NCBI GenBank assembly: GCA_033722155.1
Contig: JAWVZN010000002.1
Coordinates: 17,503-81,502, forward strand
DNA: 64,000 bases
DNA from: Gemmatimonadota bacterium
GTDB lineage: Bacteria; Gemmatimonadota; Gemmatimonadetes; JACCXV01; JAHWKZ01
Direction: 5' to 3'
The notes below the pieces were generated by a model, which worked only from the letters and a program-made list of their open reading frames with translations, was not told the DNA's origin and searched no databases. How positions within the stretch are numbered: position 1 is the first letter of the stretch; every line of letters starts with the position of its first letter. Below are positions 1-64,000 of this stretch, one piece after another. The translations under genes were made by a program, and so were the position numbers.

Positions 1-1462
1 GCCGGAGGAACAGTTCGGTGCCGGGGTCCAGAAGGATGTGGGTGACCCCGTGCTCGCGGAGGAACTCCCAGGTTCTGTCCGGATCGCCATGGAAGGGATA
101 GACGAGGCTGGGACGGCGACTCCAATACCACGCGAAGCTGGGTTTGCGGGCGAGGATCACCGCATCCGGGGCGTTGTCGCCGACCCACTCCGCTGCGAGG
201 AAGTAATCCTGCCATCGAGCGGAGTAGCCGGCGAGATCGCGGCCGTCGAGATAGTCTCGGAGCCGCTTCCACCGATCCGGTGCCTGCAGGGCCGCTCCGG
301 CGAGCAGCACGGCGGCCAGCGCCGCTGCCGCGATCCGGGCGGGCCACACGGTGTCCGCGACCCGGCGGGACAGGTGATCCATCCCCACCAGCGTGTAGAG
401 CCACAGCAGCGGGACCACCGTCAGGAAGAAGCGGTCCCCGATCCAGGGCCACACCGCCAGCAGGGCGAGCGTGATCGCCGCCCAGGCGTCGGCGACGGCG
501 ATCCCGCGGGTCCGAATCGCCCGCACGGCGCCGTAGACGATCAGGCCGGCGCCGACCGGGAGGGCGAGCAGGACGATCGCGTCGGGCGGATCGGCGGGCC
601 AGAAGAGGCGCGGAAGCTCGACGGTGGCGTAATGCCCGACGTTGTGCAGGACCCTGCCGACGAGACCGGCCGCCCCGATCGACGGGCTCTCCGGGTTCTG
701 GGGATTCGAGGCGAGCAGCTGGTCGAGGTACCCGCCCGTCTCCGGAGGGCCCTGGCGCGTCCAGAGGATCCACGGGAGCGTGCCGAGGACGGCGACCGCC
801 GCGGCCGCGCCGGCGCGCTTCCACAGCCCGTGGATCGCGGGCACGATCGCCGCCGCGAGGAGGAGGGCGGCGCCGGGGATCCGGACGTAGAACGCGGCGA
901 CCGCGATCGCACAGGCCCCGATCCATCGCGGGTCGATCTCCCCGCCGGGCTCCTCCCCTCCCTCTTGGTCGCTCGGAGCGTGCCCATCCGCGAAGGCCCA
1001 CAGCGCCACCATCACGATCGCGGTGAACGCCATGTCCGAGAGGACCCAGTGGGTGTAGGCGAGGAACACCGGATAGAGGCCGACCAGCCACACCGCCGCC
1101 GCGGCGGCCCAGCCGGGCACCGCGGGGTCCCTCCGGGCCAGCGCCCACACCGCCCACAGCAGGACTCCCCCCGCCGCGATCGAGCCGAGCTTGAGCGCCA
1201 TCATCGAGCCTCCGGACAACCAGTAGAGGGGCACCAGGAGGAGCGGGAATCCCGGGGGGTACTGCGTCTCGGGAGGGGCGCCGGGATGGACGAGGTCGAC
1301 GTAGCCACGTCCCTCGCCCAGGGCCTTCGTCAGAGCGTAGTAGGCGGCGTTGTCGCCTCCGGTGAAGAGGAAGGGGTCGAAGAGGGCCAGCGCGAGGACG
1401 AGCGAGACGAGGCCGCCCGCGAGCGCCCAGGCGGCGGGAGCGTTGCGCGGCTTCCCGGTCAC
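1..1462 (-). CDS. ArnT/PMT-family (GT39/GT83-like) integral-membrane glycosyltransferase, N-terminal ~487 aa; the 3' end runs off the left edge of the window
   Basis: The codon-aligned antisense of the listed + ORF 38..1621 reads as a multi-TM protein (…FPLLLVPLYWLSGGSMMALKLGS…, …YLDGRDLAGYSARWQDYFLAAEWVGDNAPDAVILARKPSFAWYWSRRPSLVYPFHGDPDRTWEFLREHGVTHILLDPG…) with high GC3. A GTG start at 1460-1462 overlaps the upstream TGA (GTGA). There is no stop inside the window, so it is absent from the ORF track. Confidence 0.6.
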   Translation of the reverse strand, partial: MTGKPRNAPAAWALAGGLVSLVLALALFDPFLFTGGDNAAYYALTKALGEGRGYVDLVHPGAPPETQYPPGFPLLLVPLYWLSGGSMMALKLGSIAAGGVLLWAVWALARRDPAVPGWAAAAAVWLVGLYPVFLAYTHWVLSDMAFTAIVMVALWAFADGHAPSDQEGGEEPGGEIDPRWIGACAIAVAAFYVRIPGAALLLAAAIVPAIHGLWKRAGAAAAVAVLGTLPWILWTRQGPPETGGYLDQLLASNPQNPESPSIGAAGLVGRVLHNVGHYATVELPRLFWPADPPDAIVLLALPVGAGLIVYGAVRAIRTRGIAVADAWAAITLALLAVWPWIGDRFFLTVVPLLWLYTLVGMDHLSRRVADTVWPARIAAAALAAVLLAGAALQAPDRWKRLRDYLDGRDLAGYSARWQDYFLAAEWVGDNAPDAVILARKPSFAWYWSRRPSLVYPFHGDPDRTWEFLREHGVTHILLDPGTELFLR

Positions 1463-2415
1463 GCGCGGGGATCGCCGTCGCCCGGACCGCGCCTCAGGCG
1501 GCGTTCGAGGATCTCCACGCGATCGCGGACGTGGGCGATCGCCTCGCCCAGGAACCCCATGGCGAAGAAGAGGGTGCCGAGGGTGACGAGCAGGACGACC
1601 AGGTACAGCAGCGGACGGTAGCCCTGGTCGAGCACGAAGCGGTAGTACACCGCGACCCCTCCGACCGCGAGTCCGGCCACCCCCATCGCCGTTCCGAGCG
1701 CTCCGAAGAGGATCAGCGGCTTGCGCATGAAGGACACCAGCGTCTTCACCGCCACCAGGTCCAGCGTTCCCACGACGACGCGGCCGAGCCCGGAGTACTT
1801 CGCCTCCCCCCGCCGACGTGGATGGAGGTCGATCGGGATCTCGTCGATCCGGTATCCGCGATCGTGCGCCAGCACGACGAAGAAGCGGTGCCAGTCGTGG
1901 CGGAGCGGGATCTCGTAGAGGAGGTCCCGGCGGAACGCCTTCATCGAGTTGAGGTCGTGCACGGGAACGTCGAACAGGGTGCGGGAGAGGCGGTTGTAGA
2001 TCTTCGAGACGAACCGTTTCTCGTACGGCCCCTGCTTCCAGCCGGTGACCACGTCGTTCCCCTCGGCGAGCTTCTCGAGGAAGCGGGGGATCTCCTCGGG
2101 CGAGTGCTGCAGGTCGGCGTCGTACAGGACGATCCATCCGCGGTCGGTGGCGTCGACGCCGGTCAGCAGCGCCTCGGTCTTGCCGCGGTTCCTCCGGTGC
2201 CGGAGAACCCGCACCGGGGCCGGAAACGAGCCGGCCTCGCTCCTCGCGGCCTCGGCGGTGCCGTCCTCCGAGCCGTCGTCGACGAGGATCACCTCGCCCT
2301 CCAGTCCGTGCTTCCGCCACGTCTGTGCCATGGCGTCGAACAGCGGACCCATGTTCTCCACCTCGTCGTAGGCGGGAATCACGACGGCGAAATCGCTCTC
2401 GATCGGTCGGTCCAT
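1459..2415 (-). CDS. GT2-family polyprenyl-phosphate glycosyltransferase (Dpm1/GtrB/ArnC-like), 318 aa
   Basis: This is the C-terminal part of minus ORF 1459..3741, beginning MDRPIESDFAVVIPAYDEVENMGPL…VILVDDGSEDGT…YDADLQH…, with two C-terminal TM helices. The ATG at 2413-2415 was confirmed in the sequence, and the N-terminal 440 aa of the listed ORF is arginine-rich antisense junk. Confidence 0.85.
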   Translation of the reverse strand: MDRPIESDFAVVIPAYDEVENMGPLFDAMAQTWRKHGLEGEVILVDDGSEDGTAEAARSEAGSFPAPVRVLRHRRNRGKTEALLTGVDATDRGWIVLYDADLQHSPEEIPRFLEKLAEGNDVVTGWKQGPYEKRFVSKIYNRLSRTLFDVPVHDLNSMKAFRRDLLYEIPLRHDWHRFFVVLAHDRGYRIDEIPIDLHPRRRGEAKYSGLGRVVVGTLDLVAVKTLVSFMRKPLILFGALGTAMGVAGLAVGGVAVYYRFVLDQGYRPLLYLVVLLVTLGTLFFAMGFLGEAIAHVRDRVEILERRLRRGPGDGDPRA

Positions 2416-2453
2416 TCCGGGCTCCGAATGTAGCTGTCGCATCGAATCGGGCG

Positions 2454-3569
2454 CTACGAGACCTCGGAGGCGGTCAGGAGAACCTCGCGGGTCTCCGCCG
2501 CGGCGCGCTCCCAGGTGTATCCACGGGCACGCTCGATCGCGCGCTCCTCCATGGCGGCCCGACGGGCCGGCTCCCCGATCGTGGTCTCCATCGCGGCGGC
2601 GATCGCGTCGACGTCCCCGTGGGGCACCAGCAGGCCCGTCTCCCCGTCCACCACCGTGTCCCGCAGGCCGGGGGCGTCGCTCACGATGGCGATCGTCCCC
2701 ACGCGCTGCGCCTCGATCGAGGCGAATCCCCACCCCTCCTTGGGGCTGGTGTAGAGCACCGCCCACGCCCGACGCAGCAAGGTCCACTTCTCCTCCTCCT
2801 CCACCCATCCGGGAAACGCGATCCGGCCGTCCAGGCCCAGCCGGTGGGCCCGCCTCTGCAGCGAGGCCCGGCGGTCCCCGTCCCCGGCCACCACCAGCCG
2901 CGCCTCCGGGTGGCGACCGGCGAGGCGGGCGAAGCCGTCGATCACGAGATCGATCCGCTTGTACCGCTTCAGCCGCCCCAGATAGAGGAAGAGGGGCTCG
3001 TCCGCCTTCGGATGCGCCAGGATCGGCGCCTCGTCGAGCGCGGGCAGGCCGTTGGGGATCACCCGGATCCGCTTCTCGTCGATCCCCCGATCCACGAGGT
3101 CGGCGGCGGTCGACGGCGAGACGGCGACGAACGGGCTGTCCCGGTACACGGCGGGAATCGGGAGCTCGCTCAACCGGAGGTAGGCGCCGAACAGCGGGTT
3201 CGTCTCCGAGAAGATCGTCCGGCCGAAGAGGTGATGCACCAGGGCGACCACCGGCGGCTCGACGAAGAGCGGGGAGAAGAACGGCACCTTGTTCAGATCG
3301 TCGACGACGACGTCGTAGTCGTTCCGGCGCAGGACCCTCCGGTACACCCCGGGCACGACGTAGTTGAACACCGCGCGGTTCCCGCCGCGGCGGATCACGT
3401 TGATCCCCTCGAGACGCTCCTCGTCGGGCGCGCCGTCGTGGCCGACGCACAGGAGGTCCACCCGGTCGCCGGCCGCGGCGATTCGGGAGAACACCTCCCG
3501 GAGGTGGACCTCGGCTCCCCCCGCGTCCGGATGGGTCCAGTCCTGCCAGTTGACCACGAGGATCCGCAC
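2454..3569 (-). CDS. GT4-family glycosyltransferase (GT-B fold), ~371 aa
   Basis: C-terminal part of ORF 2454..4514: VRILVVNWQDWTHPDAGGAEVHLREVF…EGWGFASIEAQRVGTIAIVSDAPGLRDTVVDGETGLLV. The GTG start at 3567-3569 is preceded by a GGGGGGAGGGG SD-like run, and the rest of the listed ORF is junk. Confidence 0.8.
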   Translation of the reverse strand: MRILVVNWQDWTHPDAGGAEVHLREVFSRIAAAGDRVDLLCVGHDGAPDEERLEGINVIRRGGNRAVFNYVVPGVYRRVLRRNDYDVVVDDLNKVPFFSPLFVEPPVVALVHHLFGRTIFSETNPLFGAYLRLSELPIPAVYRDSPFVAVSPSTAADLVDRGIDEKRIRVIPNGLPALDEAPILAHPKADEPLFLYLGRLKRYKRIDLVIDGFARLAGRHPEARLVVAGDGDRRASLQRRAHRLGLDGRIAFPGWVEEEEKWTLLRRAWAVLYTSPKEGWGFASIEAQRVGTIAIVSDAPGLRDTVVDGETGLLVPHGDVDAIAAAMETTIGEPARRAAMEERAIERARGYTWERAAAETREVLLTASEVS

Positions 3570-3574
3570 CGCGG

Positions 3575-4357
3575 CTACCCCTCCCCCCCGTACGGCTCGG
3601 GGTTCCGGGCCACGACCCCGATCGTGTGCGCCACCCAGCGGGAGGCGCGGGGGGCGAGAAGACGCTCGCGGACGGCCCGCCGAAGCCGGCGCACCGGCGC
3701 GATCGACGGGGGGCGCCGGGGCAGGGACGCGCCCGCCGCACCGGCGAGCTCGCGAATCAGGCGGTAGCCGAGGCTCGGGACCATCCAGTCCCCGTAGGTG
3801 TCCACGATCTCCCAGCCCGCCTCGCGGACCGTCCTCTCGAGCTCGGCGATGGTGAACTCCGTCTCCCACCCCGCGAACCACCGGTCGGCCCTCAGGGCCG
3901 CGCGCTTCAGGAGGGTCCAGGGATGGTAGGTCTGGGGCACGTCCGCGAGCAGCAGGCCGCCGGGCGCGGTCACCCGCCGGTTCTCGACGAGGAACGGAAG
4001 CGGGTTGCCGAAGTGCTCGAGGACCCCCTGGTGGAAGACGGCGTCGAAGACGCCGTCGGCGAACGGGAGATGGAAGCCGTCCCCGCCGACGATCCCCCGA
4101 CCGGTCAGGGCGGGTGCGGCGGCGGACACCAGCTCGAGCGCGGCCGGGCTGGAGTCGAGCGCCACCGCCCGATGTCCTCGGGCCGCGAGGGCGGCGGTGT
4201 CGCGTCCGGTGCCGGCGCCGATCTCGAGCACCCGCTTCTCCGGAGCCCCGAGCCAGGCGACCAGCGTCTCGAGGACCCGGGGGCTGGAGGGATACACCTC
4301 GTCGAGCTCCCCCTTCGAGGCCCAGAAGCGGGTCCAGGGATCGGCGGAACGCTCCAC
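3575..4357 (-). CDS. Class I SAM-dependent methyltransferase, 260 aa
   Basis: ORF 3575..4357 carries the Rossmann SAM motif VLEIGAGTGRDTAALAARGHRAVALD and …DAVFHQGVLEHF…. Confidence 0.8.
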   Translation of the reverse strand: MERSADPWTRFWASKGELDEVYPSSPRVLETLVAWLGAPEKRVLEIGAGTGRDTAALAARGHRAVALDSSPAALELVSAAAPALTGRGIVGGDGFHLPFADGVFDAVFHQGVLEHFGNPLPFLVENRRVTAPGGLLLADVPQTYHPWTLLKRAALRADRWFAGWETEFTIAELERTVREAGWEIVDTYGDWMVPSLGYRLIRELAGAAGASLPRRPPSIAPVRRLRRAVRERLLAPRASRWVAHTIGVVARNPEPYGGEG

Positions 4358-4362
4358 GGCCG

Positions 4363-5127
4363 CTACCGTCCGCTCGCCAGCCGCCGCGCCTCGAAATCGG
4401 GCATCCCGCTCTCCCGGATCGCCCGCTGGGCGCCCTCGAGGTCGTACTCGAGGCGGGCGAGCGAAAGGCGGGCGTGGTCGGGATCGAACGCGGCCACCGC
4501 GGCGCGCGGATCACGGTCGCGGGGTTGCCCCACCGCTCCGGGATTGACGAGGTACGGCCCCTCTCCGTCGAGGTCGACCTCCCCGTCGGCGGGAAGGCGC
4601 AGGGTCTCGACCCCCCCGCCGTCCCGCCTCCAACCGGATCGGACGTGGGTGTGGCCGAGAAAGCCCCATCGGGCGCCGCGCTCCGCCAGGGCGTCGAGCT
4701 CCACGCCCGCCGCGCGAGCCCCGGTCACGTACTCGAAGGCGTCGGGGTCGGCGAAGCCGCTGTGGGCGAGCCACACCCCGCTCTCCTCCCCTTCCACGGT
4801 GGCCGGCAGCGAGGCGAGCCACCCCATGGCGTCGTCGTCGAGCAGTTCCGCCTGGCGTTCGATCGCCGCCCGGGCATGGGGGTTGAACCACTCGCGGAGG
4901 GCCGGATCCACGACGGCGGCGTCGTGGTTGCCCCGCACCGTGGCCGCGCACGTTTCGCGGATCCGCTCCACGCACGCCGCCGGATCGCCGCCGTATCCCA
5001 CCACGTCGCCCATGCAGTAGATCGGCTCCGCCCCCCGCTCCTCGAGCCACGCCAGCGCGGCATCGAGCGCCTGGAGGTTGGCGTGGACGTCCGCGAGAAG
5101 GCCTAGCGGCCGGGTTCGAACTCCCAT
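4363..5127 (-). CDS. Metallophosphoesterase (calcineurin-like, YfcE/MJ0936-type), 254 aa
   Basis: Trimmed from ORF 4363..5343 to MGVRTRPLGLLADVHANLQALDAALAWL…CMGDVVGYGGDP…GNHD…GHTH, with the ATG at 5125-5127 confirmed. Confidence 0.75.
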   Translation of the reverse strand: MGVRTRPLGLLADVHANLQALDAALAWLEERGAEPIYCMGDVVGYGGDPAACVERIRETCAATVRGNHDAAVVDPALREWFNPHARAAIERQAELLDDDAMGWLASLPATVEGEESGVWLAHSGFADPDAFEYVTGARAAGVELDALAERGARWGFLGHTHVRSGWRRDGGGVETLRLPADGEVDLDGEGPYLVNPGAVGQPRDRDPRAAVAAFDPDHARLSLARLEYDLEGAQRAIRESGMPDFEARRLASGR

Positions 5128-5135
5128 GCCCCGGC

Positions 5136-5558
5136 TCAGGACGGGATCAGGTCGAGCCGGTGGGCGAGGGCGTCGAGGATCCCGTTGACGAAGCGGGGGG
5201 AGTCGGCGCCCCCGTAGCGCTTCGCGAGCGTGATCGCCTCGTCGATGGACACCTTGAAGGGGACGTCGTCGAAGTGGAGGAACTCGGCGGTGGCGATCCG
5301 CAGCACGTTGCGATCGATAATCGCCATGCGGTGGACCTCCCACCGCTCCGCGCTCTCCTCCAGGAGGGAATCGATCTCGCCGAGCCGGTCGGCGATCACG
5401 CCGATCAGCTCCTCGGCGAACTCGCGCACGTCGGCGTGGATGCTGCGCCGCTCGAAGAACCCCTCGGCCTCCTCGCGGAGCTCCGGCCGTCGGTCGCGCA
5501 TCTCCCAGGCGTACAGGATCTGGAGGACCCAGCGGCGGGCCTTGCTGCGTGCCTTCAC
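5136..5558 (-). CDS. nusB: Transcription antitermination factor NusB
   Basis: 140-aa ORF: MKARSKARRWVLQILYAWEM…; it overlaps ribH by an ATGA junction. Confidence 0.9.
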   Translation of the reverse strand: MKARSKARRWVLQILYAWEMRDRRPELREEAEGFFERRSIHADVREFAEELIGVIADRLGEIDSLLEESAERWEVHRMAIIDRNVLRIATAEFLHFDDVPFKVSIDEAITLAKRYGGADSPRFVNGILDALAHRLDLIPS

Positions 5559-6067
5559 GCGTACCCGAATCCCCGCACCGGGCCGGTGCTGCGCCCGCGG
5601 AGCCGGTCGAAGAGCGCGCTCTGGAGAAGGGCGGCGCGGGCGGCTTCGCCGCCCTTGTCGCCGCGGGCGGGATCCGCCCGTTCGACCGCCTGCTCCAGGG
5701 TGTCGGTGGTGAGCACGCCGAAGGCGAGGGGGACGTCGATCTCGTTGGCGAGCCTCTGCAGCGATCGGGTCACCGCGTGCGCGAGGACGTCGAAGTGGGG
5801 GGTCTCTCCCCGGACCACCGCTCCCAGGGCGACGATCGCGTCGAGGGGGTCGGGACCGGCGGCGAGCACCTCGCGGCAGGCGGGAGAGAGCTCGAAGGCG
5901 CCGGCGACGTGGTGCTCGACGACATCGCCGTCGTCGACCCCGGCCTCCACCAGCGCGGTCCGCGCCCCGGCGGCGAGCTGCGAGGTGACCTCGTCGTTGA
6001 AGCGGGCCACGACGAGCGCCACGCGGCGCCCGGTCCCGTCCACCTCGAGTTCCGGCGCCTCGCCCAT
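5555..6067 (-). CDS. ribH: 6,7-dimethyl-8-ribityllumazine synthase
   Basis: 170-aa ORF: …RRVALVVARFNDEVTSQL…HFDVLAHAVTRSLQRL…. Confidence 0.9.
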   Translation of the reverse strand: MGEAPELEVDGTGRRVALVVARFNDEVTSQLAAGARTALVEAGVDDGDVVEHHVAGAFELSPACREVLAAGPDPLDAIVALGAVVRGETPHFDVLAHAVTRSLQRLANEIDVPLAFGVLTTDTLEQAVERADPARGDKGGEAARAALLQSALFDRLRGRSTGPVRGFGYA

Positions 6068-6074
6068 GGGGCTC

Positions 6075-7312
<1,238 letters not shown>

Positions 7313-7316
<4 letters not shown>

Positions 7317-7903
7317 TCCCGAAACTCCATGAAACGCTTAAGGTAACGCGCGATCACATCATACTCTACGTTAACGCCGTCTCCGGGCGCGCGATCCGAG
7401 AGGTTCGTCGCCTCCCAGGTGTGGGGAACGATGGAGAGCCGGGCTCCCTCCCCGGTGAGATCGAGCACGGTCAGGCTGACGCCGTCGACGGCGATCGAGC
7501 CCTGCGCGGCGACGAGCGGCCGCCCGGAAGCGGGCAACGACAGCTCAATGTACCGGTTCTCCCCCCGCCGTTCAATCGATCGCACGGTGGCCACGGCGTC
7601 GACGTGGCCGAGCACGAAGTGGCCTCCGAGCCGGTCGCCGACGGCGAGGGAACGCTCGAGGTTCACCACCCGGCCAATCTCGTAGTCGCCGATGGCCGTC
7701 CGCTTCACCGTCTCCCGGACCGCCTCGGCGACGAAGGCCCCCTCCTCGACGTCCACCGCGGTGAGACAGCAGCCGTCGACGGCGACAGACTCCCCCACCT
7801 CCAGAGGCTCCTCCCAGGGCGTGGCGACCTCGAGCCGGCGTCCCTTCTCGAGGGCCTCGACCGCGCGGACCGTTCCGGTGGACTCCACGATTCCGGTGAA
7901 CAC
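7313..7903 (-). CDS. ribE: Riboflavin synthase alpha chain
   Basis: 196-aa ORF: MFTGIVESTGTV…VDGCCLTAV…; its stop overlaps the ribBA start (ATGA at 7313-7316). Confidence 0.9.
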
Positions 7904-7929
7904 GGGGTCAGTCTACCACGTCGGGGGCC

Positions 7930-9045
7930 TCACAGCGACGGCGCCGGTCGGCCGGTGACGAGGCCGTCGCGGCCGATCGAGGACCACTCGGGATCCTCCA
8001 GGGCGAATCGCGGGACGGGTCCGGCCGGAGAGAAGACGGGGAGCGCCCCCTCGCCGACGTCGCCGTCCGGGGCGAGAAAGAGGGACCACCGATCGGCGAG
8101 TCCGGCCACCATCAGGCCGGCCGCCAGGGTCGGGCCGGGCTCGACGAGGACCCCGGACACGCCCCGTTCGGCCAGATCCGCCGCCACCGCTCCCAGGTCC
8201 AGGCCCCGCCTCGAGACCTCGGTGGGGACCACCTCGACGCCGCGATCCCGCAGCGCCTCGGCCCGCTCGCCGGAGGCGCGACAGTAGATCACGGTCGGGA
8301 CGCGGTCGGAGGTCTCGGCGATCCGGGAGTCGGCGGGGGTACGGAGGTGGGAGTCGAGGACGACCCGGAGGGGCTGCACCTCCGGCCACGGCGCCTCCGC
8401 AGGGTCGTCCGGCGCCCCGTCGGGAGGCGGCCACTCCCGCACCGTCAGCTCGGGATCGTCGATCATGACGGTGCCGACGCCCACCAGCACCGCCCGGTGG
8501 CGACGCCGCATCCGGTGGACGTGGGCGCGGGCCTCGGGGGAGGTGATCCACCCGGGGCCGCCGACCCCGCGGGTGAGGTGGCCGGAGAGGGTCTGGGCGG
8601 TCTTCAGGTGGAAGAGGGGCCGCCCCGTCCTCTCGAGGTGGAGCCACGCTTCGACGAGCCTCATGGCGGCGGCCTCCTCGACGCCGGCCACGACCTCCAC
8701 GCCGACCTTCCGGAGCCGCTCGGCGCCTCCCCTCCCGGCGTGGGGATCGGGGAGGGCGTAGACGAGGCGGGCGATTCCCGCCTCCGCGAGCGCGTCGGCA
8801 CAGGGAGGAGTGCGACCGTGATGGGCGCACGGCTCCAGGGTGACCACCGCGGTCGCTCCCCGGACGTCGCGTCCCTCCCGGGCGGCGGCCTCGAGCGCCA
8901 CCGCCTCCGCGTGGGGCTCGCCCGCCCGGGCGTGCCACCCCTCCCCGAGCACCTCCCCCTCGCCGTCCACGAGCACGCACCCGACCATCGGGTTGGGAGA
9001 GGTGGCGCCGCCCCCCCGCTCGGCCAGCGCGAGGGCGCGCCGCAT
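7930..9045 (-). CDS. ribD: Bifunctional diaminohydroxyphosphoribosylaminopyrimidine deaminase / 5-amino-6-(5-phosphoribosylamino)uracil reductase
   Basis: Trimmed from ORF 7930..9474 to MRRALALAERGGGATSPNPMVGCVLV…HAEAVAL…TLEPCAHHGRTPPC…; the ATG at 9043-9045 was confirmed and the upstream 143 codons are antisense junk. Confidence 0.85.
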   Translation of the reverse strand: MRRALALAERGGGATSPNPMVGCVLVDGEGEVLGEGWHARAGEPHAEAVALEAAAREGRDVRGATAVVTLEPCAHHGRTPPCADALAEAGIARLVYALPDPHAGRGGAERLRKVGVEVVAGVEEAAAMRLVEAWLHLERTGRPLFHLKTAQTLSGHLTRGVGGPGWITSPEARAHVHRMRRRHRAVLVGVGTVMIDDPELTVREWPPPDGAPDDPAEAPWPEVQPLRVVLDSHLRTPADSRIAETSDRVPTVIYCRASGERAEALRDRGVEVVPTEVSRRGLDLGAVAADLAERGVSGVLVEPGPTLAAGLMVAGLADRWSLFLAPDGDVGEGALPVFSPAGPVPRFALEDPEWSSIGRDGLVTGRPAPSL

Positions 9046-9071
9046 GGGAGCCCGCCACCGAGCGGCGCGGC

Positions 9072-10163
9072 TCACCCGGACACCTTCCACGCGACTCCTT
9101 CGCCCTCGATCACGGACCCGATCCGCGCCACCCGTTCGCCGGTCTCCGCCATCCCCGCGGTGATCCGATCGACCGCGGATGGGGCGACGACGAGACAGAA
9201 GCCGATCCCCATGTTGAACACCCGGACCATCTCCCCGTCGCCGATCCCGCCGGCCTCCGCCAGCCACCGGAAGACGGGCGGCACCTCCCACGCGGAGGGA
9301 TCGATCCGGGCGCCGAGCCCCTCGGGGAGGGCCCGCGGAAGGTTCCCGGAGAAGCCACCGCCGGTGACGTGGGCGGCGGCGCGGAGGTCGGGGTCGTCGA
9401 GCAGGGGCTCGACGGCGTCCCGATAGGAGCGGTGAACCGCGAGCAGGACGTCGGCCCAGGAGGCCTCCCCCCACGGAACGGTCTCCTCCAGGCGCTTCCC
9501 TTCCCGTTCCAGCACGATCTTGCGCGCCAGGGTGTAGCCGTTGGTGTGGAGGCCGCTGGACGGCAGCGCGAGGATCGCGTCACCGGGCTCGGCGCGTCCC
9601 CAACGCTCGAGCCGGCCACGGGGGGCGATCCCGACCGCGAAGCCGGCGAGGTCGTAGCCGTCCGGGGGATACACGCCGGGCATCTCGGCGGTCTCGCCGC
9701 CGAGGAGCGGGATCCGGTTGGCCCGGCAGCCGCGGGCGAAGCCTTCCACCAGCGCGAGGGTCGTCTGCTCGCGGAGCTCGCCGGCCGCGATGTAGTCCAG
9801 GAAGAGCAGCGGGCGCGCTCCCGAGGCGAGGAGGTCGTTCACGCAGTGGTTCACCAGGTCCTCTCCGATGGTGTCGTGGCGGTCGGCGGCCTGCGCCACC
9901 AGCACCTTCGTCCCCACGCCGTCGGTCGTCGCCACCAGGACCGGCTCCGCCTCCGGGAGGGAGCCGATGTCGAAACACCCCCCGAAGCCTCCCGGGCCCC
10001 CGAGGACTTCCGGGCCGAGCGTTTCCTCGACCAGGGCGCCGAGCCTCCGCTTCAGGCGGTCGGCCACGGCGAGATCCACGCCGGCCTCGGCGTAGGCCGG
10101 CGCGTCTCCTCCGTCCGCCGGGCCCCTCCCGGCCGGCCGGGGCTCGCCGGGAGCCTCAGGCAT
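9072..10163 (-). CDS. purM: Phosphoribosylformylglycinamidine cyclo-ligase (AIR synthetase)
   Basis: 363-aa ORF: …VATTDGVGTKVLVA…GGETAEMPGVY…. The N-terminal ~25 aa may be an extension, so the exact start is uncertain. Confidence 0.8.
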   Translation of the reverse strand: MPEAPGEPRPAGRGPADGGDAPAYAEAGVDLAVADRLKRRLGALVEETLGPEVLGGPGGFGGCFDIGSLPEAEPVLVATTDGVGTKVLVAQAADRHDTIGEDLVNHCVNDLLASGARPLLFLDYIAAGELREQTTLALVEGFARGCRANRIPLLGGETAEMPGVYPPDGYDLAGFAVGIAPRGRLERWGRAEPGDAILALPSSGLHTNGYTLARKIVLEREGKRLEETVPWGEASWADVLLAVHRSYRDAVEPLLDDPDLRAAAHVTGGGFSGNLPRALPEGLGARIDPSAWEVPPVFRWLAEAGGIGDGEMVRVFNMGIGFCLVVAPSAVDRITAGMAETGERVARIGSVIEGEGVAWKVSG

Positions 10164-11082
10164 CGAGGAGCAGGGGCACGTGGTCGAAGTGGGTGAGCTC
10201 CTTGAACTCGAGGAAGCGCCGCTCGATGTCGCGGGGGGAGAGCGAGGCCAGCCGGTCGACGGAGAACGACTCGCAGCAGAACGATCCCATCGCGGAGCCG
10301 TAGATCGTGGCCCGGCGCAGGCCCTCCGTGGTGAGGTCCTCGAGCGAGGCCAGGGTGCCGAGGAAGCCCCCGGCGAAGGCGTCGCCGGCGCCGGTGGGGT
10401 CCACGATGTTCTCCAGCGGCAGCCCCGGAACCGCGAAGCGGCCGTCCGGGCCGAAGGTGATCGCCCCGTGCTCCCCCTTCTTCACCACGACGAGGCGCGG
10501 GCCCCAGGAGAGGATCCTCTCGCCGGCGAGGCGCAGGTTGGGCTCTTCGGCCAGCTCGCGGGCTTCGGAGTCGTTGATCAGCACGAGCTCCACCCGTTCG
10601 ATCACCTCCCGCAGCTTCCGGGGGGTGTTCTCGATCCAGTAGTTCATCGTGTCGAGCGACGTCGTGCGCGGCTCCGCCACCTGCTCGAGCACCCGCAGCT
10701 GCAGTCCCGGATCGATGTTGGCGAGGAACACGTGATCGGTGTCGCGGAAGGAGTCGGGGATCTCGGGATCGAAGTCGGCGAAGACGTTCAGATCCGTGTA
10801 CAGGGTCTCGCGGGCGTTGAAGTCGAACCCGTAGCGGCCGCCCCACCGGAAGGTCCTCCCCTCGGCCGTCTGGAGGCCGGAGAGGTCGAGACCGTGGGAG
10901 ACGAGCAGCTCGACATGCTCGTCGGGAAAGTCGGTGCCCACGACGCCCACGACGCGGACGTCGGTGAAGTAGGAGGCCGCCAGGCCGAAGTAGACGGCGG
11001 CGCCCCCGAGGGCGTCCTCGCGGGACCCGAACGGCGTCTCCACGTCGTCGAGCGCGACCGATCCTACCACGAGAAGCGACAT
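10156..11082 (-). CDS. PfkB-family carbohydrate/nucleoside kinase (ribokinase-like)
   Basis: 308-aa ORF: MSLLVVGSVALDDVETPFG…VDPTGAGDAFAGGFL…; it has an 8-nt overlap with the purM start. Confidence 0.75.
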   Translation of the reverse strand: MSLLVVGSVALDDVETPFGSREDALGGAAVYFGLAASYFTDVRVVGVVGTDFPDEHVELLVSHGLDLSGLQTAEGRTFRWGGRYGFDFNARETLYTDLNVFADFDPEIPDSFRDTDHVFLANIDPGLQLRVLEQVAEPRTTSLDTMNYWIENTPRKLREVIERVELVLINDSEARELAEEPNLRLAGERILSWGPRLVVVKKGEHGAITFGPDGRFAVPGLPLENIVDPTGAGDAFAGGFLGTLASLEDLTTEGLRRATIYGSAMGSFCCESFSVDRLASLSPRDIERRFLEFKELTHFDHVPLLLDA

Positions 11083-11116
11083 CGCGGGGCTCCCGGCTCG
11101 AGAGGGGCGGTGGGGG

Positions 11117-12775
11117 TCACATCGACTCCGGCGCGTCGAGGCCGAGGAGGCCGAGAAGCTCGCGAATCGCCCGCTGCGTGGCCCTGGCGAGCGCCAGCCG
11201 GGCGCGGGCGAGGCCCTCGTCGTCGACCAGGAATCGTCGGGCGTGGTACCACAGGTGGAAGCGCCGGGCGAGTTCCTCCAGGACGTCGGTGATCCGATGG
11301 GGCTCGAGCGCGTCGGCGGCGTCGGCGACCACCTCGGGGAGCTCGTCGAGGGCCCGCATCAGGGCGAGCTCCTCCTCGGCGACGAGCCGGTCGAGGGTGT
11401 CGGGGAGCCCCCCGCTCCCCGCCGGGTCCAGGTCGGGACGCTCCAGGCGGTCGAACACGCCGGCGATCCGGGCGTGGGCGTACTGCACGTAGTAGACGGG
11501 GTTCTCCTCGCTCTGGCGCCGGGCCAGGTCGAGGTCGAAGGTCATGTGGGTGTCCCCCTTGCGCATCAGCAGGAAGTAGCGCGTCACGTCGACCCCGATG
11601 TCGTCCAGCAGCTCCCGCAGGGTCACCATCCGGTCCGCCCGGGTGGAGAGGCGCACCTCGCGGCCCTCCTCCACCAGGCTGATCTGCTGATAGATCACGG
11701 GCCTCAGCCACCCCGGAGGCACGCCCAGCGCCCGCAGCGCGGCCTCCATGCGCACGGCGTAGCTGTGATGATCGGCGCCCCACACGTCGACGGCGACGTC
11801 GAAGCCCCGCTCCCGCTTGTCGCGGTGGTAGGCGATGTCGGGCAACAGGTAGGTGGGGCGTCCGGTGGACTTCACGAGAACCCGGTCGTCGGTGTCGCCG
11901 TAGGCGCTGGCCCGGAACCACGTCGCTCCCTCGTCCTCGTACACGACCCCGTTCTCCCGGAGCGCATCGAGGGTCGCCTCGATCCGGCCGTTCTCGTAGA
12001 GAGAGGACTCGTTGAACCACCGGTCGAACTCCACCCGGAAGCGGGCGAGATCCTCCCGGATCCACCGCTTGATCCGCTCTCCCGCGAAGTCGCGGAAGAC
12101 CGCGAGGCAATCCTCCGGCGGAACGTCCCGGTAGGCCTCGCCCCGCTCCTCCGCCATCTCGTCGGCCAGCTCTCCGATGTAGTCTCCCCGGTACCCTTCC
12201 TCGGGAAACGGATAATCGGGATCCCACCGGCGCTGGTAGCGGGCGTGGACGGAGGCGCCCAGGAGGTCCATCTGGCGCCCGGCGTCGTTGAAGTAGTACT
12301 CCCGCACCACGTCGGCGCCCTGCGATTCGTAGAGGGCGGCGATCGCGTCGCCGAGGGCGGCGTTGCGGGCGTGGCCGACGTGGAGCGGCCCGGTCGGGTT
12401 GGAGCTGACGAACTCCACGTTCACCCGGAGCTCCGACAGCCGGTCCGAACCGAGATAGCGGGAGGGGTCGTCGAGGATCCTCTCGACCACCCCCCGCAGC
12501 CAGGCGGGAGCCATCGTGGCGTTGAGGAAGCCCGGGCCGGCGACGTCGAGCCCGGCCCACCGGTCGGGATCGAGCTCGAGCGCCCCGGCGAGCTCGTCGG
12601 CGATCTCGCGCGGGGAGCGTCCGAGGCGGCCGGCGAGCTGCATCGCCACCGGGCTCGCCCAGTCCCCGTGATCGGGATCCCTGGGACGCTCGACGAGGAT
12701 CTCCTCTACGGCCCACCCCCGCTCGGCGCAGGCGGTCGCGATCGCGGCGCGCAGCTCCTCCCGCGGGCGGATCAC
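11117..12775 (-). CDS. argS: Arginine--tRNA ligase
   Basis: Trimmed from ORF 11117..13351. The HIGH motif …SSNPTGPLHVGHARNAALGD… is present and the protein ends …APESM. The GTG start at 12773-12775 overlaps the upstream TGA (GTGA), giving 552 aa. Confidence 0.9.
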   Translation of the reverse strand: MIRPREELRAAIATACAERGWAVEEILVERPRDPDHGDWASPVAMQLAGRLGRSPREIADELAGALELDPDRWAGLDVAGPGFLNATMAPAWLRGVVERILDDPSRYLGSDRLSELRVNVEFVSSNPTGPLHVGHARNAALGDAIAALYESQGADVVREYYFNDAGRQMDLLGASVHARYQRRWDPDYPFPEEGYRGDYIGELADEMAEERGEAYRDVPPEDCLAVFRDFAGERIKRWIREDLARFRVEFDRWFNESSLYENGRIEATLDALRENGVVYEDEGATWFRASAYGDTDDRVLVKSTGRPTYLLPDIAYHRDKRERGFDVAVDVWGADHHSYAVRMEAALRALGVPPGWLRPVIYQQISLVEEGREVRLSTRADRMVTLRELLDDIGVDVTRYFLLMRKGDTHMTFDLDLARRQSEENPVYYVQYAHARIAGVFDRLERPDLDPAGSGGLPDTLDRLVAEEELALMRALDELPEVVADAADALEPHRITDVLEELARRFHLWYHARRFLVDDEGLARARLALARATQRAIRELLGLLGLDAPESM

Positions 12776-13098: not shown

Positions 13099-13181
13099 GG
13101 GCGTCGCTCCGTCTCCCGGGGCGGAATGCAGGAACGGGACCCCAATATCGCCGGCGAGCGGCCCGATACCAAGGGGGAGGG

Positions 13182-18269: not shown

Positions 18270-18290
18270 GCTAGGGCCCGGTCCGGATCC

Positions 18291-19835: not shown

Positions 19836-19848
19836 CCCGTCCCCCTCC

Positions 19849-21594: not shown

Positions 21595-21623
21595 GGTCCG
21601 CCCCGTGGCCCGTCGAGCGGAGC

Positions 21624-23549: not shown

Positions 23550-23573
23550 GAAGGGGGGGCTTCCGGGTTCCGG

Positions 23574-23611: not shown

Positions 23612-23639
23612 ACGTGTACGGATTCACGAGAGGAAGAAG

Positions 23640-26626: not shown

Positions 26627-26642
26627 GGAGGGCCCGCGTCCG

Positions 26643-55654: not shown

Positions 55655-56047
55655 TCACGTCTCTCCCCCTCGCGAACGGGCGATCCGGACCGCCGCGACG
55701 AGCTCGCGCACCCCCGGCATGGGGTACTGGTAGCCCACCACCCGATACGCCCAGTTCGGCTCGTCGGTGAGGATCTGGGCTCCCAGGAACGTCCGGTGGA
55801 CCTCCAGCACCCGCTCCCACGGGATCCGGCGGTAGCGCCACAGGTACTTCACCCCGAGACCGTTTCGCCCCACCCGGATCGCCGGAGCCACGTAGGCGCC
55901 GAGCCCCAGGCTGAAGAACGACCACAGCAGGATGAACCAGCGGTGCACGAAGAGGTCGATCCAGAAGAGGTAGAGGAAGAAGACGGCGCTGACGAAGAAC
56001 CACGCCTTCAGCAGCCAGCGGACCCACGGGAAGGAGAACTCGATCAC
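55655..56047 (-). CDS. Bacterial PH-domain membrane protein, ~130 aa
   Basis: C-terminal tail of the otherwise-antisense ORF 55655..57967: (GTG)[51 protein letters not shown]… (2 TM) plus …YRRIPWERVLEVHRTFLGAQILTDE…. The GTG start overlaps the rnr TGA (GTGA). Confidence 0.6.
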   Translation of the reverse strand: MIEFSFPWVRWLLKAWFFVSAVFFLYLFWIDLFVHRWFILLWSFFSLGLGAYVAPAIRVGRNGLGVKYLWRYRRIPWERVLEVHRTFLGAQILTDEPNWAYRVVGYQYPMPGVRELVAAVRIARSRGGET

Positions 56048-58185
56048 CCCTCGCCCTTCTTCTCCACCAGCTCGAAGTCGATCTGCCGCAGGTCCTTGTT
56101 CACCCCCGCGACCCGCACCCGTACCGGATCGGCGAGGCGGAAGCGGCGCCCGGTGTTGCGTCCCAGGAGCGCGTACTTCTCCTCGTGGTACTCGTAGTAG
56201 TCGTCGTCGAGCTCGTGCATGTGGACGAGGCCCTCCACGAAGTACTGGTCCAGCCGGACGAAGAGGCCGAACGAGGTCACCCCGCTGACCACCCCGTCGA
56301 ACTCGTCGCCGACGTGGCGCTCCATGAACTGCACCTTCTTGAGGTCCACGGAGTCCCGCTCGGCCTCCACCGCCGCGCGCTCCTGCACCGAGGCGTGCTC
56401 GGTGGCGCGCTCGAGTCGGCTCTCCTCGCCCCCCCGCCGCTCGTCGTCCTTCCACCGCTCGCCCGACTCGATCCGCTTCAGCAGGCGGTGGACCAGGAGG
56501 TCCGGGTAGCGACGGATGGGCGAGGTGAAGTGGGTGTAGTGGTCGGCGGCCAGGCCGAAGTGGCCGATGTTCTCCACCTGGTAGCGGGCCTGCTTCATCG
56601 ATCGGAGGATCACCGTGTTGATCAGCTCCTCCTCGGGCTTGCCGCGCGCCTGCTCGATGACCGCCCCGAACGCCTTCGGGTCGAGCCCGCCGTCCGACTT
56701 CGGCAGCCGGTAGCCGAGCGCCGCCAGGAAGTCGCGGATCTGGTCGAGCTTTTCCGGGGCCGGCCGATCGTGAACCCGGTAGACGAAGGGAACCTGGAGG
56801 CGCGTGGCGTGGCGCGCCACGGTCTCGTTGGCCAGGAGCATGAACTCCTCGATCAGCCGCATCGAATCGAGCCGCACCGACTCCTGGATGTCGATCGGGA
56901 AGCCCTCCGCGTCCAGCTCGACGATCGCTTCGGGCAGGTCGAAGTCGAGACTCCCCCGCTTCACGCGCCGGCCGCGGAGCACCTTGGCGAGGCGGCGCAG
57001 CGTCTGGAGCTCCCACAACAGCTCCTCGTGCTCCGTCCTGGCGGGATCGCTCCGGATCAGCGACTGGGCCTCGTGGTAGGTGAGCCGGTGGCGGCTCCGG
57101 ATCACGGTCTCCGCGAACCGGTGCTTCCGCACCGCCCCTTCGCCGTCCAGGGTGAGGACGATCGAGTACGCCAGCCGGTCCTCGTTCGGGCGCAGCGAGC
57201 ACAGCTCGTTGGAGAGGCGCTCGGGCAGCATCGGGATGACGCGATCCACCAGATACGTGGAGGTGGCCCGCTCGTACGCCTCCTCGTCGATCACGTCGTG
57301 GGGCTCGACGTAGTGGCTGACGTCGGCGATGTGGACGCCGACCTCGAAGAGATCGTCCCCCTTGCGCTCGATCGAGAGGGCGTCGTCGAAGTCCTTCGCG
57401 TCGGTGGGGTCGATGGTGAACGTCGACCGGTCGCGCCAATCCTCGCGCCGCTCGAGCTCGCGGTCGAAGTCGGGCTCGATCGCCCCCGCGGCCCGGATCA
57501 CCTCCTCGGGGAACTCCTCGTCGAGACCGTGGGTCTTGACGATGGAGAGGATGTCCACCCCCGGGGCGTCGGGCGGCCCCAGCACCTCCACCACGCGCCC
57601 CTCGGGATTCTTGGTCCCGTCCCCCCAGTCGTCGATGGCGACGACGACCTTCTCCCCCTCCTCCGCCTGGGCGAGGTCTTCCTCGGCGACGTAGACGTCG
57701 AATCCGAGACGGGGATTGTCGGGAACCACGAAGCCGAACCGCTTGCCCCGCTGCAGCGCCCCGACCACCTCCTCGCGGGCCCGCTCGAGCACCCGGATCA
57801 CGCGCCCCTCGGGGTTGTCCTTGCCGCGATGGCGCTCGATCCGCGCCACCACCCGGTCCCGGTGGGTCGCGCTCCCCACCTTGTCCGGAGGCACGAAGAC
57901 GTCCGGCTTCTCCGTCTTCTTCTCGCGGACGACGAAGCCCGCGCCCTTGCGGGTCATGTCGAGCCACCCGACCACGAGGTTGATCTGCTCGGGGACTGCG
58001 TAGCGCTGCCCCTTGATCTTGTAGATCCGGCCGTCGTCCACGAGGCGGCCGAGGGATCCCTTCAGCTCCTCGTACCGCTCGTTCGGCAGGCCGAGGCCCC
58101 GGGCGATCTCCTTCCGCTTGAGCGGGCGCCGCGCCTCGTCCTCCAGATAGGCGACGATACGATCGTCGAGTTTCCGGTCGCTCAA
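56044..58185 (-). CDS. rnr: Ribonuclease R
   Basis: ORF 56044..58314 trimmed to TTG at 58183-58185: (M)[26 protein letters not shown]…. It has an RNB domain and a C-terminal S1 domain (…[15 protein letters not shown]…). The TTG overlaps the upstream TGA (TTGA). Confidence 0.9.
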
Positions 58186-62153: not shown

Positions 62154-62954
62154 ATGAAGCGCCTGTCCAGCTTCCTCTTCCCGGCGGTCCTTTCCGTCCT
62201 TCTCGCCTCGCCGGCCGCGGCCCAGGAGGAGCTCTCGGCGGCCCTCGAGGGCCGCCGCGGCGCGATCCCCGACGATCCGCGAGCGTTCCAGGAGACGTGG
62301 CTCGTGCCTTCCGAGGGGAAGGCGGCCGCCGGACCCGAGCAGACCGAGTTCGGCGGCCGTGTCCGGGTGTATCAGGAGCGTCCACGGGAGCGGATCGAGA
62401 TCTTCGAGGTCGAGGGCGGGGAGTTGGGCGATCCCGTCGTGATCGTCGGCGACGGGACGCGGTACTGGCTCGTGACCCCGGTCGGGGCGAGCCCGCTTCT
62501 CGAGACCGAGCCGGCCGCCGACCCCTTCGTACGGAGGGTGCTCGCGGGTCCCGCCGGGGACGCCGAGCCGCACCGGATCGTCCCGGCGGAAGGCGGAATC
62601 GCCGCCGTGGTCCTCCGCCACTCCCTCGCCGGGGAGTTCGACGCCGACGAGGCGTTCGCGCTCGAGCTCCCCCGCGGCGGATCCGGCGTTCTGGAGACGA
62701 CGGTCTCGAGCTTCAGCGCCGCCGGAGACCCCGAGGTGGTGGCCTCGGCGGGCGCGCGCGGGGTCGACCGGGTCCGCACCGCCAGCGGAACGATCGCCGT
62801 CACCCCCGACCCCGGCGCGGTGGCGTGGATGGAGGAGGAGCTCGCCGTTCCCACGCTCGAGCTGGAGCGCTTCCGTCGAGAGGCACGCCTGGCGCCCTAC
62901 GACGTGCTCCCTTCCGTGGAGCAGGCGCCGTCCGACCCGGAGGCGGGCCGATGA
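62154..62954 (+). CDS. Secreted hypothetical protein, 266 aa (signal peptide; possibly a LolA/RseB-like fold)
   Basis: ORF: MKRLSSFLFPAVLSVLLASPAAAQEE…; it lies 8 nt downstream of the cyclase stop. Confidence 0.55.
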   Translation: MKRLSSFLFPAVLSVLLASPAAAQEELSAALEGRRGAIPDDPRAFQETWLVPSEGKAAAGPEQTEFGGRVRVYQERPRERIEIFEVEGGELGDPVVIVGDGTRYWLVTPVGASPLLETEPAADPFVRRVLAGPAGDAEPHRIVPAEGGIAAVVLRHSLAGEFDADEAFALELPRGGSGVLETTVSSFSAAGDPEVVASAGARGVDRVRTASGTIAVTPDPGAVAWMEEELAVPTLELERFRREARLAPYDVLPSVEQAPSDPEAGR

Positions 62955-63835
62955 TCGGACGGGGCGTCCGCGCCCTCGTGACGGCCCTGCTCGTCCTGCT
63001 CCTGGCGGCCCCCGCGGCCCGCGCGCAGATCTTCGGCGAGATCCAGGAGAAGGTGCAGGACGCCGCCGAGAAGGTGCAGCAGGCCCGGAAGTACGGCGCC
63101 GCGGTGGTGCCGATCAGCACCGGGCAGGAGATCGAGATCGGCCGCGGGATCGCGGCCACCCTCGCCGGAGCCTACGGCGTCGACCGCGACCCCGAGCTCA
63201 CCCGCTACGTCAACCTGGTCGGCTCCGTGGTCGCGTCGGTCGATCCCCGGCCCGGCATCGCCTACCGCTTCGCCGTCCTCGACACCGACGCCGTGAACGC
63301 CTTCGCCGCCCCCGGCGGGTACGTCTTCGTGACCCGCGGAGCCCTCGCCGCGATGGAGGACGAGGCGACGCTGGCCGCGGTGCTCGCCCACGAAGTGGGC
63401 CACGTCGACGCCCGCGACGTGGTGGAGGAGATCCAGAGCCGGGCCCGGACCGCGCTGGGCATCGAGGAGGCCGCCGAGGCGGTGGACGTGACCGGCGAGG
63501 AGTACCTCACCAAGGCGGTGGAGACGGGCGCCACCGCGCTCTTCATGGGCCTCTCCCGGGAGGACGAGCTGGAGGCCGACCGCTTCGCGGTCGAGCGGCT
63601 CGCCGCCGTCGGCTACGATCCGGACGGCCTGCTCCGATTCCTCGAGGCGCTGGAGGAGCGCTCCGGCGATGAGGACGTCTCGCTGCTCGAGAAGACCCAC
63701 CCGGACGCCTCCGACCGGATCGACGAGGCGGAGGAGGTGGTCGAGGATCTGCCGGACGAGCGTCGGGAGGGCGTGGTGGCCGAGGCCCGGTTCCGCCGCG
63801 CCCTGGAGGAAGACACCGCGACCCCGGGTTTCTAG
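62951..63835 (+). CDS. M48-family zinc metallopeptidase (signal peptide, HEXXH), 294 aa
   Basis: C-terminal part of ORF 62297..63835: MIGRGVRALVTALLVLLLAAPAARAQ…AVNAFAAPGGYVFVTRGAL…LAHEVGHV…. The ATG overlaps the upstream TGA (ATGA). Confidence 0.8.
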   Translation: MIGRGVRALVTALLVLLLAAPAARAQIFGEIQEKVQDAAEKVQQARKYGAAVVPISTGQEIEIGRGIAATLAGAYGVDRDPELTRYVNLVGSVVASVDPRPGIAYRFAVLDTDAVNAFAAPGGYVFVTRGALAAMEDEATLAAVLAHEVGHVDARDVVEEIQSRARTALGIEEAAEAVDVTGEEYLTKAVETGATALFMGLSREDELEADRFAVERLAAVGYDPDGLLRFLEALEERSGDEDVSLLEKTHPDASDRIDEAEEVVEDLPDERREGVVAEARFRRALEEDTATPGF

Positions 63836-64000
63836 CGCGATCGGGGCTCGCCGGGCTCCCGCACCGCTCCCACCTCCATATCGCATTCGGGGAGATCCGC
63901 CAGCAGATCCATCCCGTACGCCGACGAGGGCGTCACCGCTCCCGCCGGCGGATCCTCGAGGAGGCGCCGCACGCACTCCACGGAGGAGACGGCGGTGAAC
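63832..64000 (-). CDS. Possible 3' end of an unidentified minus-strand gene entering from the right edge
   Basis: Minus frame …FTAVSSVECVRRLLEDPPAGAVTPSSAYGMDLLADLPECDMEVGAVREPGEPRSR* has very high GC3 and ends in a TAG overlapping the M48 stop (CTAG). No function is assignable. Confidence 0.3.
   Translation of the reverse strand, partial: FTAVSSVECVRRLLEDPPAGAVTPSSAYGMDLLADLPECDMEVGAVREPGEPRSR

Follow-up and report, generated by a model that had tools for sequence, protein, structure and literature searches.

Four-nucleotide stop/start overlaps join nearly half of the co-directional gene pairs in a 64-kb region of a Gemmatimonadota genome

This study concerns a 64,000-nucleotide (nt) stretch of DNA of an uncultured Gemmatimonadota bacterium (GenBank assembly GCA_033722155.1, contig JAWVZN010000002.1, positions 17,503 to 81,502 of the forward strand), hereafter called the window, and the junctions within it at which the start codon of one gene overlaps the stop codon of the preceding gene by 4 nt, in the form NTGA (-4 overlaps). 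The GC content of the window is 71.7%, and at such a value the six-frame list of open reading frames (ORFs), 198 of which comprise at least 100 amino acids (aa), was of no use. Genes were delimited by codon-usage log-odds trained on the window, the top-scoring segment ending at the stop being taken for each stop-to-stop ORF; this gene model carries no term or bonus for overlaps. It yielded 61 genes with a coding density of 97.2%. TGA accounts for 77% of the stops, and G and non-C bases occupy 42% and 49% of the third codon positions, respectively. A preliminary description of the window, made from the letters alone, had pointed to many non-ATG starts and had warned that longest-ORF calling over-extends the N-termini; both remarks proved correct, since 26 of the 61 genes (43%) start with GTG and 3 with TTG (the other 32 with ATG), and the over-extension has a median of 50 codons and reaches at least 100 codons in 27 genes.

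According to the gene model and Pfam, genes 1-40 all lie on the minus strand and form a 42-kb array, which runs on leftward by another seven genes on the near-identical scaffold_496, to give 47 genes and approximately 49 kb. Left of the window, 4 of 6 further junctions are also at -4. Pfam searches of the window identified (i) a rib operon with nusB, (ii) argS, (iii) genes for methylmalonyl-CoA mutase and propionyl/acetyl-CoA carboxylase subunits, with an rlmD-like TRAM methyltransferase gene among them, (iv) rpsA, cmk and corA, (v) folB-folK-panB-panC, (vi) an S8 protease gene behind a xylose-isomerase-like TIM-barrel gene, (vii) trpC-trpF-trpB followed by a HEAT-repeat gene, an HD_5 gene and trpA, (viii) lexA and trpD, (ix) purC-S-Q-L-F, and (x) genes for RNase R, Era and a CHASE2 cyclase. 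In total, 55 of the 60 adjacent gene pairs are co-directional.

Accepted -4 overlaps were found at 26 of these 55 junctions (47%), all between same-strand neighbours and with the frame relation confirmed pair by pair; 14 are GTGA, 10 ATGA and 2 TTGA (Table 1). The preliminary description had listed 26 such tetramers, and every one of them is present at the position given for it. These positions are numbered on the plus strand, which was left unsaid; 21 of the 26 tetramers lie on the minus strand (TCAC, TCAT or TCAA in the forward sequence), only those at 48818, 49081, 49776, 52025 and 62951 read as written, and the one at 5555-5558 is GTGA, not ATGA as labelled. As a list of junctions it stands for 25 entries; the entry at 27819 is probably wrong, and the junction at 55655-55658 was overlooked. 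The longest -4 chain comprises six genes (trpC-trpF-trpB-HEAT-HD_5-trpA), followed by one of five (purC-S-Q-L-F) and three of four genes. The idea of one giant operon spanning the 42-49 kb array was ruled out by gaps of 63-113 nt, which precede the QRPTase-like, dksA-like, Zn-ribbon, rpsA and xylose-isomerase-like genes, the -4 chains not exceeding six genes. No -1 overlap (TGATG, TAATG or TAGTG) occurs among the 55 co-directional junctions, compared with 26 at -4; at 3575 and 31909, where raw best-segment boundaries hinted at one, there is no start codon. Two -8 overlaps are located at 10156-10163 and 29441-29448.

Table 1. Minus-strand gene array and 4-nt junctions of the window. Genes are named upstream -> downstream; 'automated' denotes gene calls stored with near-identical scaffolds, and dG the predicted pairing (kcal/mol) with the anti-Shine-Dalgarno sequence.
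Feature	Position	Strand	Observations
Array of 40 consecutive genes, hyp519 ... trpC	2..42336	-	gene model, Pfam
GTGA, GT2 glycosyltransferase -> hyp519	1459..1462	-	sole candidate start; automated agrees; no Shine-Dalgarno sequence, dG -2.6
GTGA, ribH -> nusB	5555..5558	-	TCAC on plus strand; automated agrees; NusB profile position 2 at residue 6
ATGA, ribE -> ribBA	7313..7316	-	coding change-point exactly there; automated agrees; DHBP_synthase position 1 at residue 11
GTGA, Zn-ribbon protein -> argS	12772..12775	-	automated agrees; exact 552-aa product matched; Arg_tRNA_synt_N position 2 at residue 7
ATGA, BCCP-like -> methylmalonyl-CoA mutase	14852..14855	-	automated agrees; GGAGG 4 nt upstream, dG -16.1
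GTGA, rlmD-like methyltransferase -> BCCP-like	15409..15412	-	automated agrees; coding change-point
ATGA, biotin carboxylase -> rlmD-like methyltransferase	16761..16764	-	automated agrees; TRAM position 4 at residue 11
ATGA, QRPTase-like -> cmk	24401..24404	-	automated agrees; Cytidylate_kin position 1 at residue 6; no Shine-Dalgarno sequence
GTGA at stop of HD gene; LytR_C start probably elsewhere (ATG 27855)	27819..27822	-	automated uses 27855; coding score
GTGA, panB -> panC	30310..30313	-	automated agrees; Pantoate_ligase position 2 at residue 5; -4 in 2/3 relatives
GTGA, folK -> panB	31104..31107	-	automated: GTG 31134; ATGA in three relatives; Pantoate_transf position 3 at residue 4
GTGA, folB -> folK	31547..31550	-	automated agrees; HPPK position 1 at residue 6; -4 in 3/3 relatives
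GTGA, xylose-isomerase-like TIM barrel -> S8 protease	34965..34968	-	automated agrees; signal peptide MRRGGTLALAGLLALGTASA
ATGA, HD_5 protein -> trpA	36671..36674	-	automated agrees; ATGA in 5/5 relatives
ATGA, HEAT-repeat protein -> HD_5 protein	38098..38101	-	automated agrees; in-frame NTGA in 8/8 relatives; GGAGG upstream
ATGA, trpB -> HEAT-repeat protein	39765..39768	-	automated agrees, exact product matched; -4 in 9/9 relatives; dG -15.5
ATGA, trpF -> trpB	40952..40955	-	automated agrees; in-frame ATGA or GTGA in 8/8 relatives
GTGA, trpC -> trpF	41605..41608	-	automated: GTG 41590; relatives' start aligns with 41608
GTGA, dicarboxylate symporter -> trpD	44195..44198	-	automated agrees; GTGA in 3/3 relatives
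TTGA, purC -> purS	48818..48821	+	automated agrees; GGAGG 7 nt upstream; PurS position 2 at residue 5
GTGA, purS -> purQ	49081..49084	+	automated agrees; NTGA kept in relatives; dG -15.5
GTGA, purQ -> purL	49776..49779	+	sole candidate start; GGAGG 7 nt upstream; GTGA at -4 in relative L012; outside automated coverage
ATGA, purL -> purF	52025..52028	+	automated agrees, exact product matched; Cys at residue 8
GTGA, bPH-like protein -> beta-eliminating lyase	55655..55658	-	automated 4-nt overlap; change-point; GGAG 4 nt upstream
GTGA, RNase R -> bPH-like protein	56044..56047	-	sole candidate start; automated agrees
TTGA, Trm112-like -> RNase R	58182..58185	-	sole candidate start; automated agrees
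ATGA, hyp266 -> next hypothetical gene	62951..62954	+	change-point exactly there; GGAGG 7 nt upstream; automated agrees

That 25 of the 26 listed codons, together with the one at 55655-55658, are true -4 starts is supported by coding change-points, Pfam domain boundaries, orthologue N-termini and automated gene calls. The last of these come from scaffolds of the ENA metagenome assembly ERZ28654005 (XULI22-1), which are 99.8% identical to the window (36 mismatches in 21,659 bp). They match the product lengths of the gene model for nearly all 61 genes. Of the 25 listed junctions that they cover, 22 have their start at the -4 codon in these calls too, as does the one at 55655-55658. Exact-sequence look-ups succeeded for argS, the HEAT-repeat gene, purF, corA, trpA and the GT2 glycosyltransferase gene; those for panB, purL and rpsA returned no match. 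The public assembly differs from the window by the above mismatches, which are single-nucleotide polymorphisms, and for panB the automated caller had also chosen another start.

It could be objected that gene callers favour -4 starts, the true ones being internal ATG or GTG codons located down- or upstream. Prodigal drops its ribosome-binding site requirement at 1- or 4-bp overlaps (PMC2848648), alternative starts lie close to several junctions, the -4 start at 27819 is itself probably wrong, and the -4 candidates of ribD (9072) and era (59319) were left unused by the automated caller. However, the overlap-blind gene model still places its coding change-points on the junctions or a few codons from them, and seven junctions offer a single possible start. 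Moreover, in 13 genes (nusB, ribBA, argS, the rlmD-like gene, cmk, panC, panB, folK, trpA, trpF, trpD, purS and purQ) the Pfam domain starts (profile positions 1-5) only 4-15 residues from the proposed start and thus leaves no room for a downstream one; in panC, the Pantoate_ligase alignment rules out any alternative of this kind. Only translation from GTG 34968 provides the S8 protease with a canonical signal peptide, MRRGGTLALAGLLALGTASA, which downstream starts destroy. In PurF, the Cys at residue 8, which we take to be the catalytic N-terminal nucleophile, lies upstream of every alternative start. The N-termini of orthologues also align to the -4 starts. An annotation artefact is, in our opinion, a very improbable explanation of the junctions as a set.

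Frameshift errors of sequencing or assembly, which might have split longer fused genes at the junctions, were named in the preliminary description as something that could overturn its list, and indels are conceivable in metagenome-derived DNA with 72% GC. They are excluded as a cause, because independent assemblies (ENA and Logan) contain 24 of the 27 junction 35-mers without any difference. The same junctions were, moreover, found in nine other metagenome-assembled genomes (MAGs), and both sides of each junction correspond to complete, separately known protein families. This explanation is effectively refuted, and we leave it almost no probability.

The automated calls and the preliminary list disagree at three junctions, two of which are decided in favour of the list and one in favour of the automated call. 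For trpF, eight relatives offer a single start, a GTG that precedes the conserved [IV]K[IV]CG motif by six codons and is aligned with 41608, while at the site of the automated start, GTG 41590, the relatives have ATC; the start is thus probably at 41608, and the automated call six codons too short. For panB, the nine-codon extension of the automated call has a coding score of -4.3, which favours 31107 over GTG 31134 and makes the automated call probably nine codons too long. The reverse was found for LytR_C: over the 11 codons that precede GTG 27822 its frame scores +3.65, whereas the corresponding score is below zero at each of the 24 accepted junctions (mean -7.6, maximum -0.7). It is probable, judging from this coding signal, that LytR_C starts at ATG 27855 with a 37-nt overlap and that the GTGA at 27819 is coincidental. 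Two further sites, 9072-9075 (AIRS-like -> ribD) and 59319-59322 (glyoxalase -> era), were considered as -4 overlaps and not accepted: they are ambiguous, and both automated calls and coding scores favour ATG 9045 and ATG 59283, respectively. The expectation that automated annotation of this genome would contain many wrong starts was not borne out. Two probable errors of 6-9 codons were found, only one of them an over-extension, and the prediction fails because real callers handle high GC and 1- or 4-bp overlaps, as Prodigal does. The design of that program addresses the problem of starts at high GC and includes a rule for such overlaps (PMC2848648); the window poses the same problem, with its long spurious ORFs and its large number of candidate starts.

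Neither composition nor chance can account for the number of -4 overlaps, which is far too high. In a comparison independent of the choice of start, the reading frame of each downstream gene, as set by its own stop, was related to the upstream stop; in 39 of the 55 pairs it is the frame that permits NTGA, whereas 18.3 such pairs were expected (p=1.4e-8). One might suppose that the overlaps are a neutral by-product, composition and compaction causing starts to drift to the nearest NTGA, with overlaps that have no function and genes that initiate independently. Yet a composition null built on the above frequencies of TGA stops and non-C third positions, and on one frame in three, predicts a -4 candidate at 6.9 junctions, and 29 of the 55 have one (p=9e-13). 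The bases preceding TGA, like the strong frame bias, also argue against a neutral origin: A was found 10 times compared with 1.4 expected (about 7-fold enriched, p=1e-6) and T 6 times compared with 1.8, whereas C was found 9 times compared with 23.4 (2.6-fold depleted, p=2e-5). When the start was drawn uniformly from the candidates within +/-45 nt, 17.2 overlaps were expected and 24 observed (z=3.1); this null under-tests the signal, because many junctions have one candidate, and more can be learnt from the frame and composition nulls.

Conservation of the junctions was analyzed in nine family-level relatives, Gemmatimonadota MAGs from species-representative genomes. Their amino acid identity to the window amounts to 45-56% for the HEAT-repeat protein and 53-83% for other proteins, and the gene order is nearly constant over more than 20 kb. 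An in-frame NTGA was present at the homology-projected start of approximately 53 of 63 orthologous junctions, with ATG, GTG and TTG exchanged for one another. For instance, the purC/purS junction has TTGA in the window, while of six relatives three have ATGA and the other three GTGA at the same position; the GTGA between the xylose-isomerase-like and S8 protease genes is TTGA in relative L010; and four relatives carry GTG where the isomerase-like gene of the window starts with TTG. That the same junctions are kept despite such turnover of start codons is a further argument against a neutral by-product. The arrangement is also shared where there is no overlap: htrA/purC, trpA/xylose-isomerase-like and S8/folB, which are separated by gaps in the window, are so in the relatives as well, where either CTGA or an arrangement out of frame is seen; for htrA/purC and S8/folB, the upstream gene of every relative ends in CTGA.

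One junction, trpC/trpF, has changed its state: about 48 nt separate the two genes in the relatives, whereas in the window genome this spacer is absent and the genes overlap by 4 nt. In L008, L010, L012, L013, L015 and L016 this spacer contains a conserved AT-rich CTTGTACTTTTCTCGAC directly before the trpF GTG, which could be an internal promoter.

In the same chain, trpB and trpA are split by genes encoding a 556-aa HEAT-repeat protein and a 476-aa HD_5 (HD-GYP-like) protein (35871-40955, minus strand). All four genes are joined by ATGA, and their order is constant in every relative covering the site (among L008-L016). The non-adjacent position of the genes for the tryptophan synthase subunits is unusual.

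Signals for ribosome binding accompany the overlaps. Pairing with the anti-Shine-Dalgarno (anti-SD) sequence is stronger at the -4 starts (mean dG of -8.65 kcal/mol, n=24) than at internal control sites (-5.33 kcal/mol; p=3e-5), with dG <= -6 at 18 of 24 junctions and <= -8.4 at 12 of 24, compared with 40% and 19% of the controls. The last six residues encoded upstream of -4 junctions contain 36.5% Gly+Glu, compared with 18.1% in the proteome (p=4e-8), because GGAGG motifs are embedded in the gene ends; this C-terminal bias was not found at the other genes of the window. Essentially no SD sequence was found at three -4 starts (hyp519, cmk and trpA), and in a genome that uses SD sequences these are hard to reconcile with the independent initiation that a neutral origin assumes.

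A mechanism that would account for these features is termination-reinitiation, demonstrated for 14 overlapping pairs in Escherichia coli and Haloferax volcanii (PMC6728339) and dependent on overlaps or very short distances (PMC10666635). In the window, a ribosome that has just terminated at the UGA of the first gene would begin again at the overlapping start, which lies one base further 5'. The SD sequence near the 3' end of the first gene would help to keep it in place, and translation would thereby be coupled along -4 chains that comprise up to six genes. It is implied that both genes of each -4 pair share one transcript, because the overlap leaves no room for a terminator, although internal promoters may exist as well.

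Several observations weigh against this interpretation, and most of them would equally suit a neutral by-product. G precedes TGA at the background rate (21 cases compared with 19.3 expected, not significant), and the GTGA tetramer occurs 418 times in the window. GTGA alone thus proves nothing; a single GTGA junction could be a compositional coincidence if the true start lies elsewhere, as is probably the case at 27819. Whereas ATGA or TTGA at a stop is informative on its own, GTGA needs other evidence. The high coding density likewise fits a neutral by-product, and half of these starts have a strong SD sequence, from which ribosomes could initiate de novo and independently, with no coupling; that coupling by termination-reinitiation operates here is likely by analogy with the work on model organisms. 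Many of the chained genes are functionally unrelated, as the preliminary description had rightly stressed (an rlmD-like gene between carboxylase and mutase genes, a xylose-isomerase-like gene with an S8 protease gene), so that the argument from subunit stoichiometry is inapplicable. Lastly, short overlaps are, according to a 2026 preprint, evolutionarily labile in bacteria in general (10.64898/2026.09.10.750558). In view of the excess over composition, the conserved junctions and the SD-less starts described above, we consider a purely neutral origin unlikely, and we are confident that the junctions are genuine, standard -4 overlaps of co-directional, presumably co-transcribed genes in a compact genome with 72% GC. 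The predominance of GTGA over ATGA and the frequent GTG starts follow from the abundance of TGA stops and G-ending codons at high GC.

The rlmD/TrmA-like TRAM methyltransferase gene (15409-16764, minus strand) is located between genes for biotin carboxylase and a BCCP-like protein, with -4 overlaps on both sides.

Although the preliminary description implied novelty, the overlap class is already known, and the window adds only local density. In 1,695 species of 49 phyla, -4 (ATGA or GTGA) is the commonest distance between unidirectional genes, followed by -1 and -8, and in H. volcanii there are about 100 overlaps at -1 compared with 354 at -4 (PMC10666635). Overlapping co-directional pairs make up approximately 15% in most groups and 30% on average in Aquificae (PMC6728339), and 16.7% genome-wide in Gemmatimonas aurantiaca. 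In the window, 30 of the 61 genes (49%) belong to such pairs (p=5e-9 against 0.167 and p=0.001 against 0.30), a density about three times the G. aurantiaca average and local to one operon-rich 64-kb patch. The pairs described by Huber et al. in 2019 and 2023 (PMC6728339, PMC10666635) resemble those found here in their ATGA and GTGA tetramers, in the same frame relation, in SD sequences that lie within the upstream gene in roughly half of the pairs or more, in a minor -8 class (two cases here), and in that many of them do not encode subunits of one complex. In contrast to them, the window is denser and lacks -1 overlaps, GTGA exceeds ATGA, TTGA occurs twice, and coupling is proposed by analogy.

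In a survey of 3,998 bacterial genomes, ATGA and GTGA made up 24% and 3.8% of unidirectional overlaps, respectively (Sukhodolsky et al. 2026 preprint, 10.64898/2026.09.10.750558). Canonical motifs dominate and several motifs occur at one orthologous junction in both data sets; unlike in the survey, GTGA accounts for 14 of 26 overlaps in the window, and most junctions are kept in the clade, with one clear gain or loss (trpC/trpF). A search of the literature on overlapping genes in Gemmatimonadota found nothing relevant.

The trp and pur operons of model bacteria are classical cases of translational coupling. Their genes, like those of the window, are chained by stop/start overlaps; unlike in the classical trp operons, trpB and trpA are here set apart by the HEAT-repeat and HD-domain genes.

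As a tentative extension, which we hold to be possible but doubtful, the lineage may use -4 overlaps genome-wide, at some 45-50% of co-directional junctions and thus above any reported phylum mean, with conserved chains of unrelated genes and without -1 overlaps. Should this reading be true, it would mean an extreme reliance on termination-reinitiation and would offer a test bed for coupling beyond subunit stoichiometry. A high density throughout the genome would likewise make it a useful extreme for the coupling of unrelated genes, as a quantitative extension and not as a new mechanism. More immediately, gene starts at -4 junctions can be trusted in this uncultured, high-GC Gemmatimonadota lineage, and probable start errors are flagged for panB and trpF (in the automated calls) and for LytR_C (in the earlier list). 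Caution is nevertheless needed: at 42% third-position G, stops will carry GTGA by chance, and frame, coding and comparative evidence is required before one is counted as a junction.

The left extension of the array (L017 10954-19296) contains seven same-strand genes, including those for GT4, a methyltransferase, a YfhO-like protein, LPG_synthase_TM, GT2 and DapF. Together with genes 1-5 of the window they form a glycan-synthesis cluster, with hyp519 (519 aa, no Pfam match) in its middle.

Rfam searches over the window identified two tRNAs only, tRNA-Lys and tRNA-His (59933-60089, minus strand). A tRNA-Ala(cgc) of 92 nt predicted by ARAGORN at 32968-33059 (plus strand), antisense within the S8 protease gene, has no Rfam match and is likely a false positive. 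Ribosomal protein S1 (21624-23549, minus strand) comprises 641 aa with six S1 domains, which are flanked by an N-terminal extension (about 85 residues, acidic and of low complexity) and an acidic C-terminal tail.

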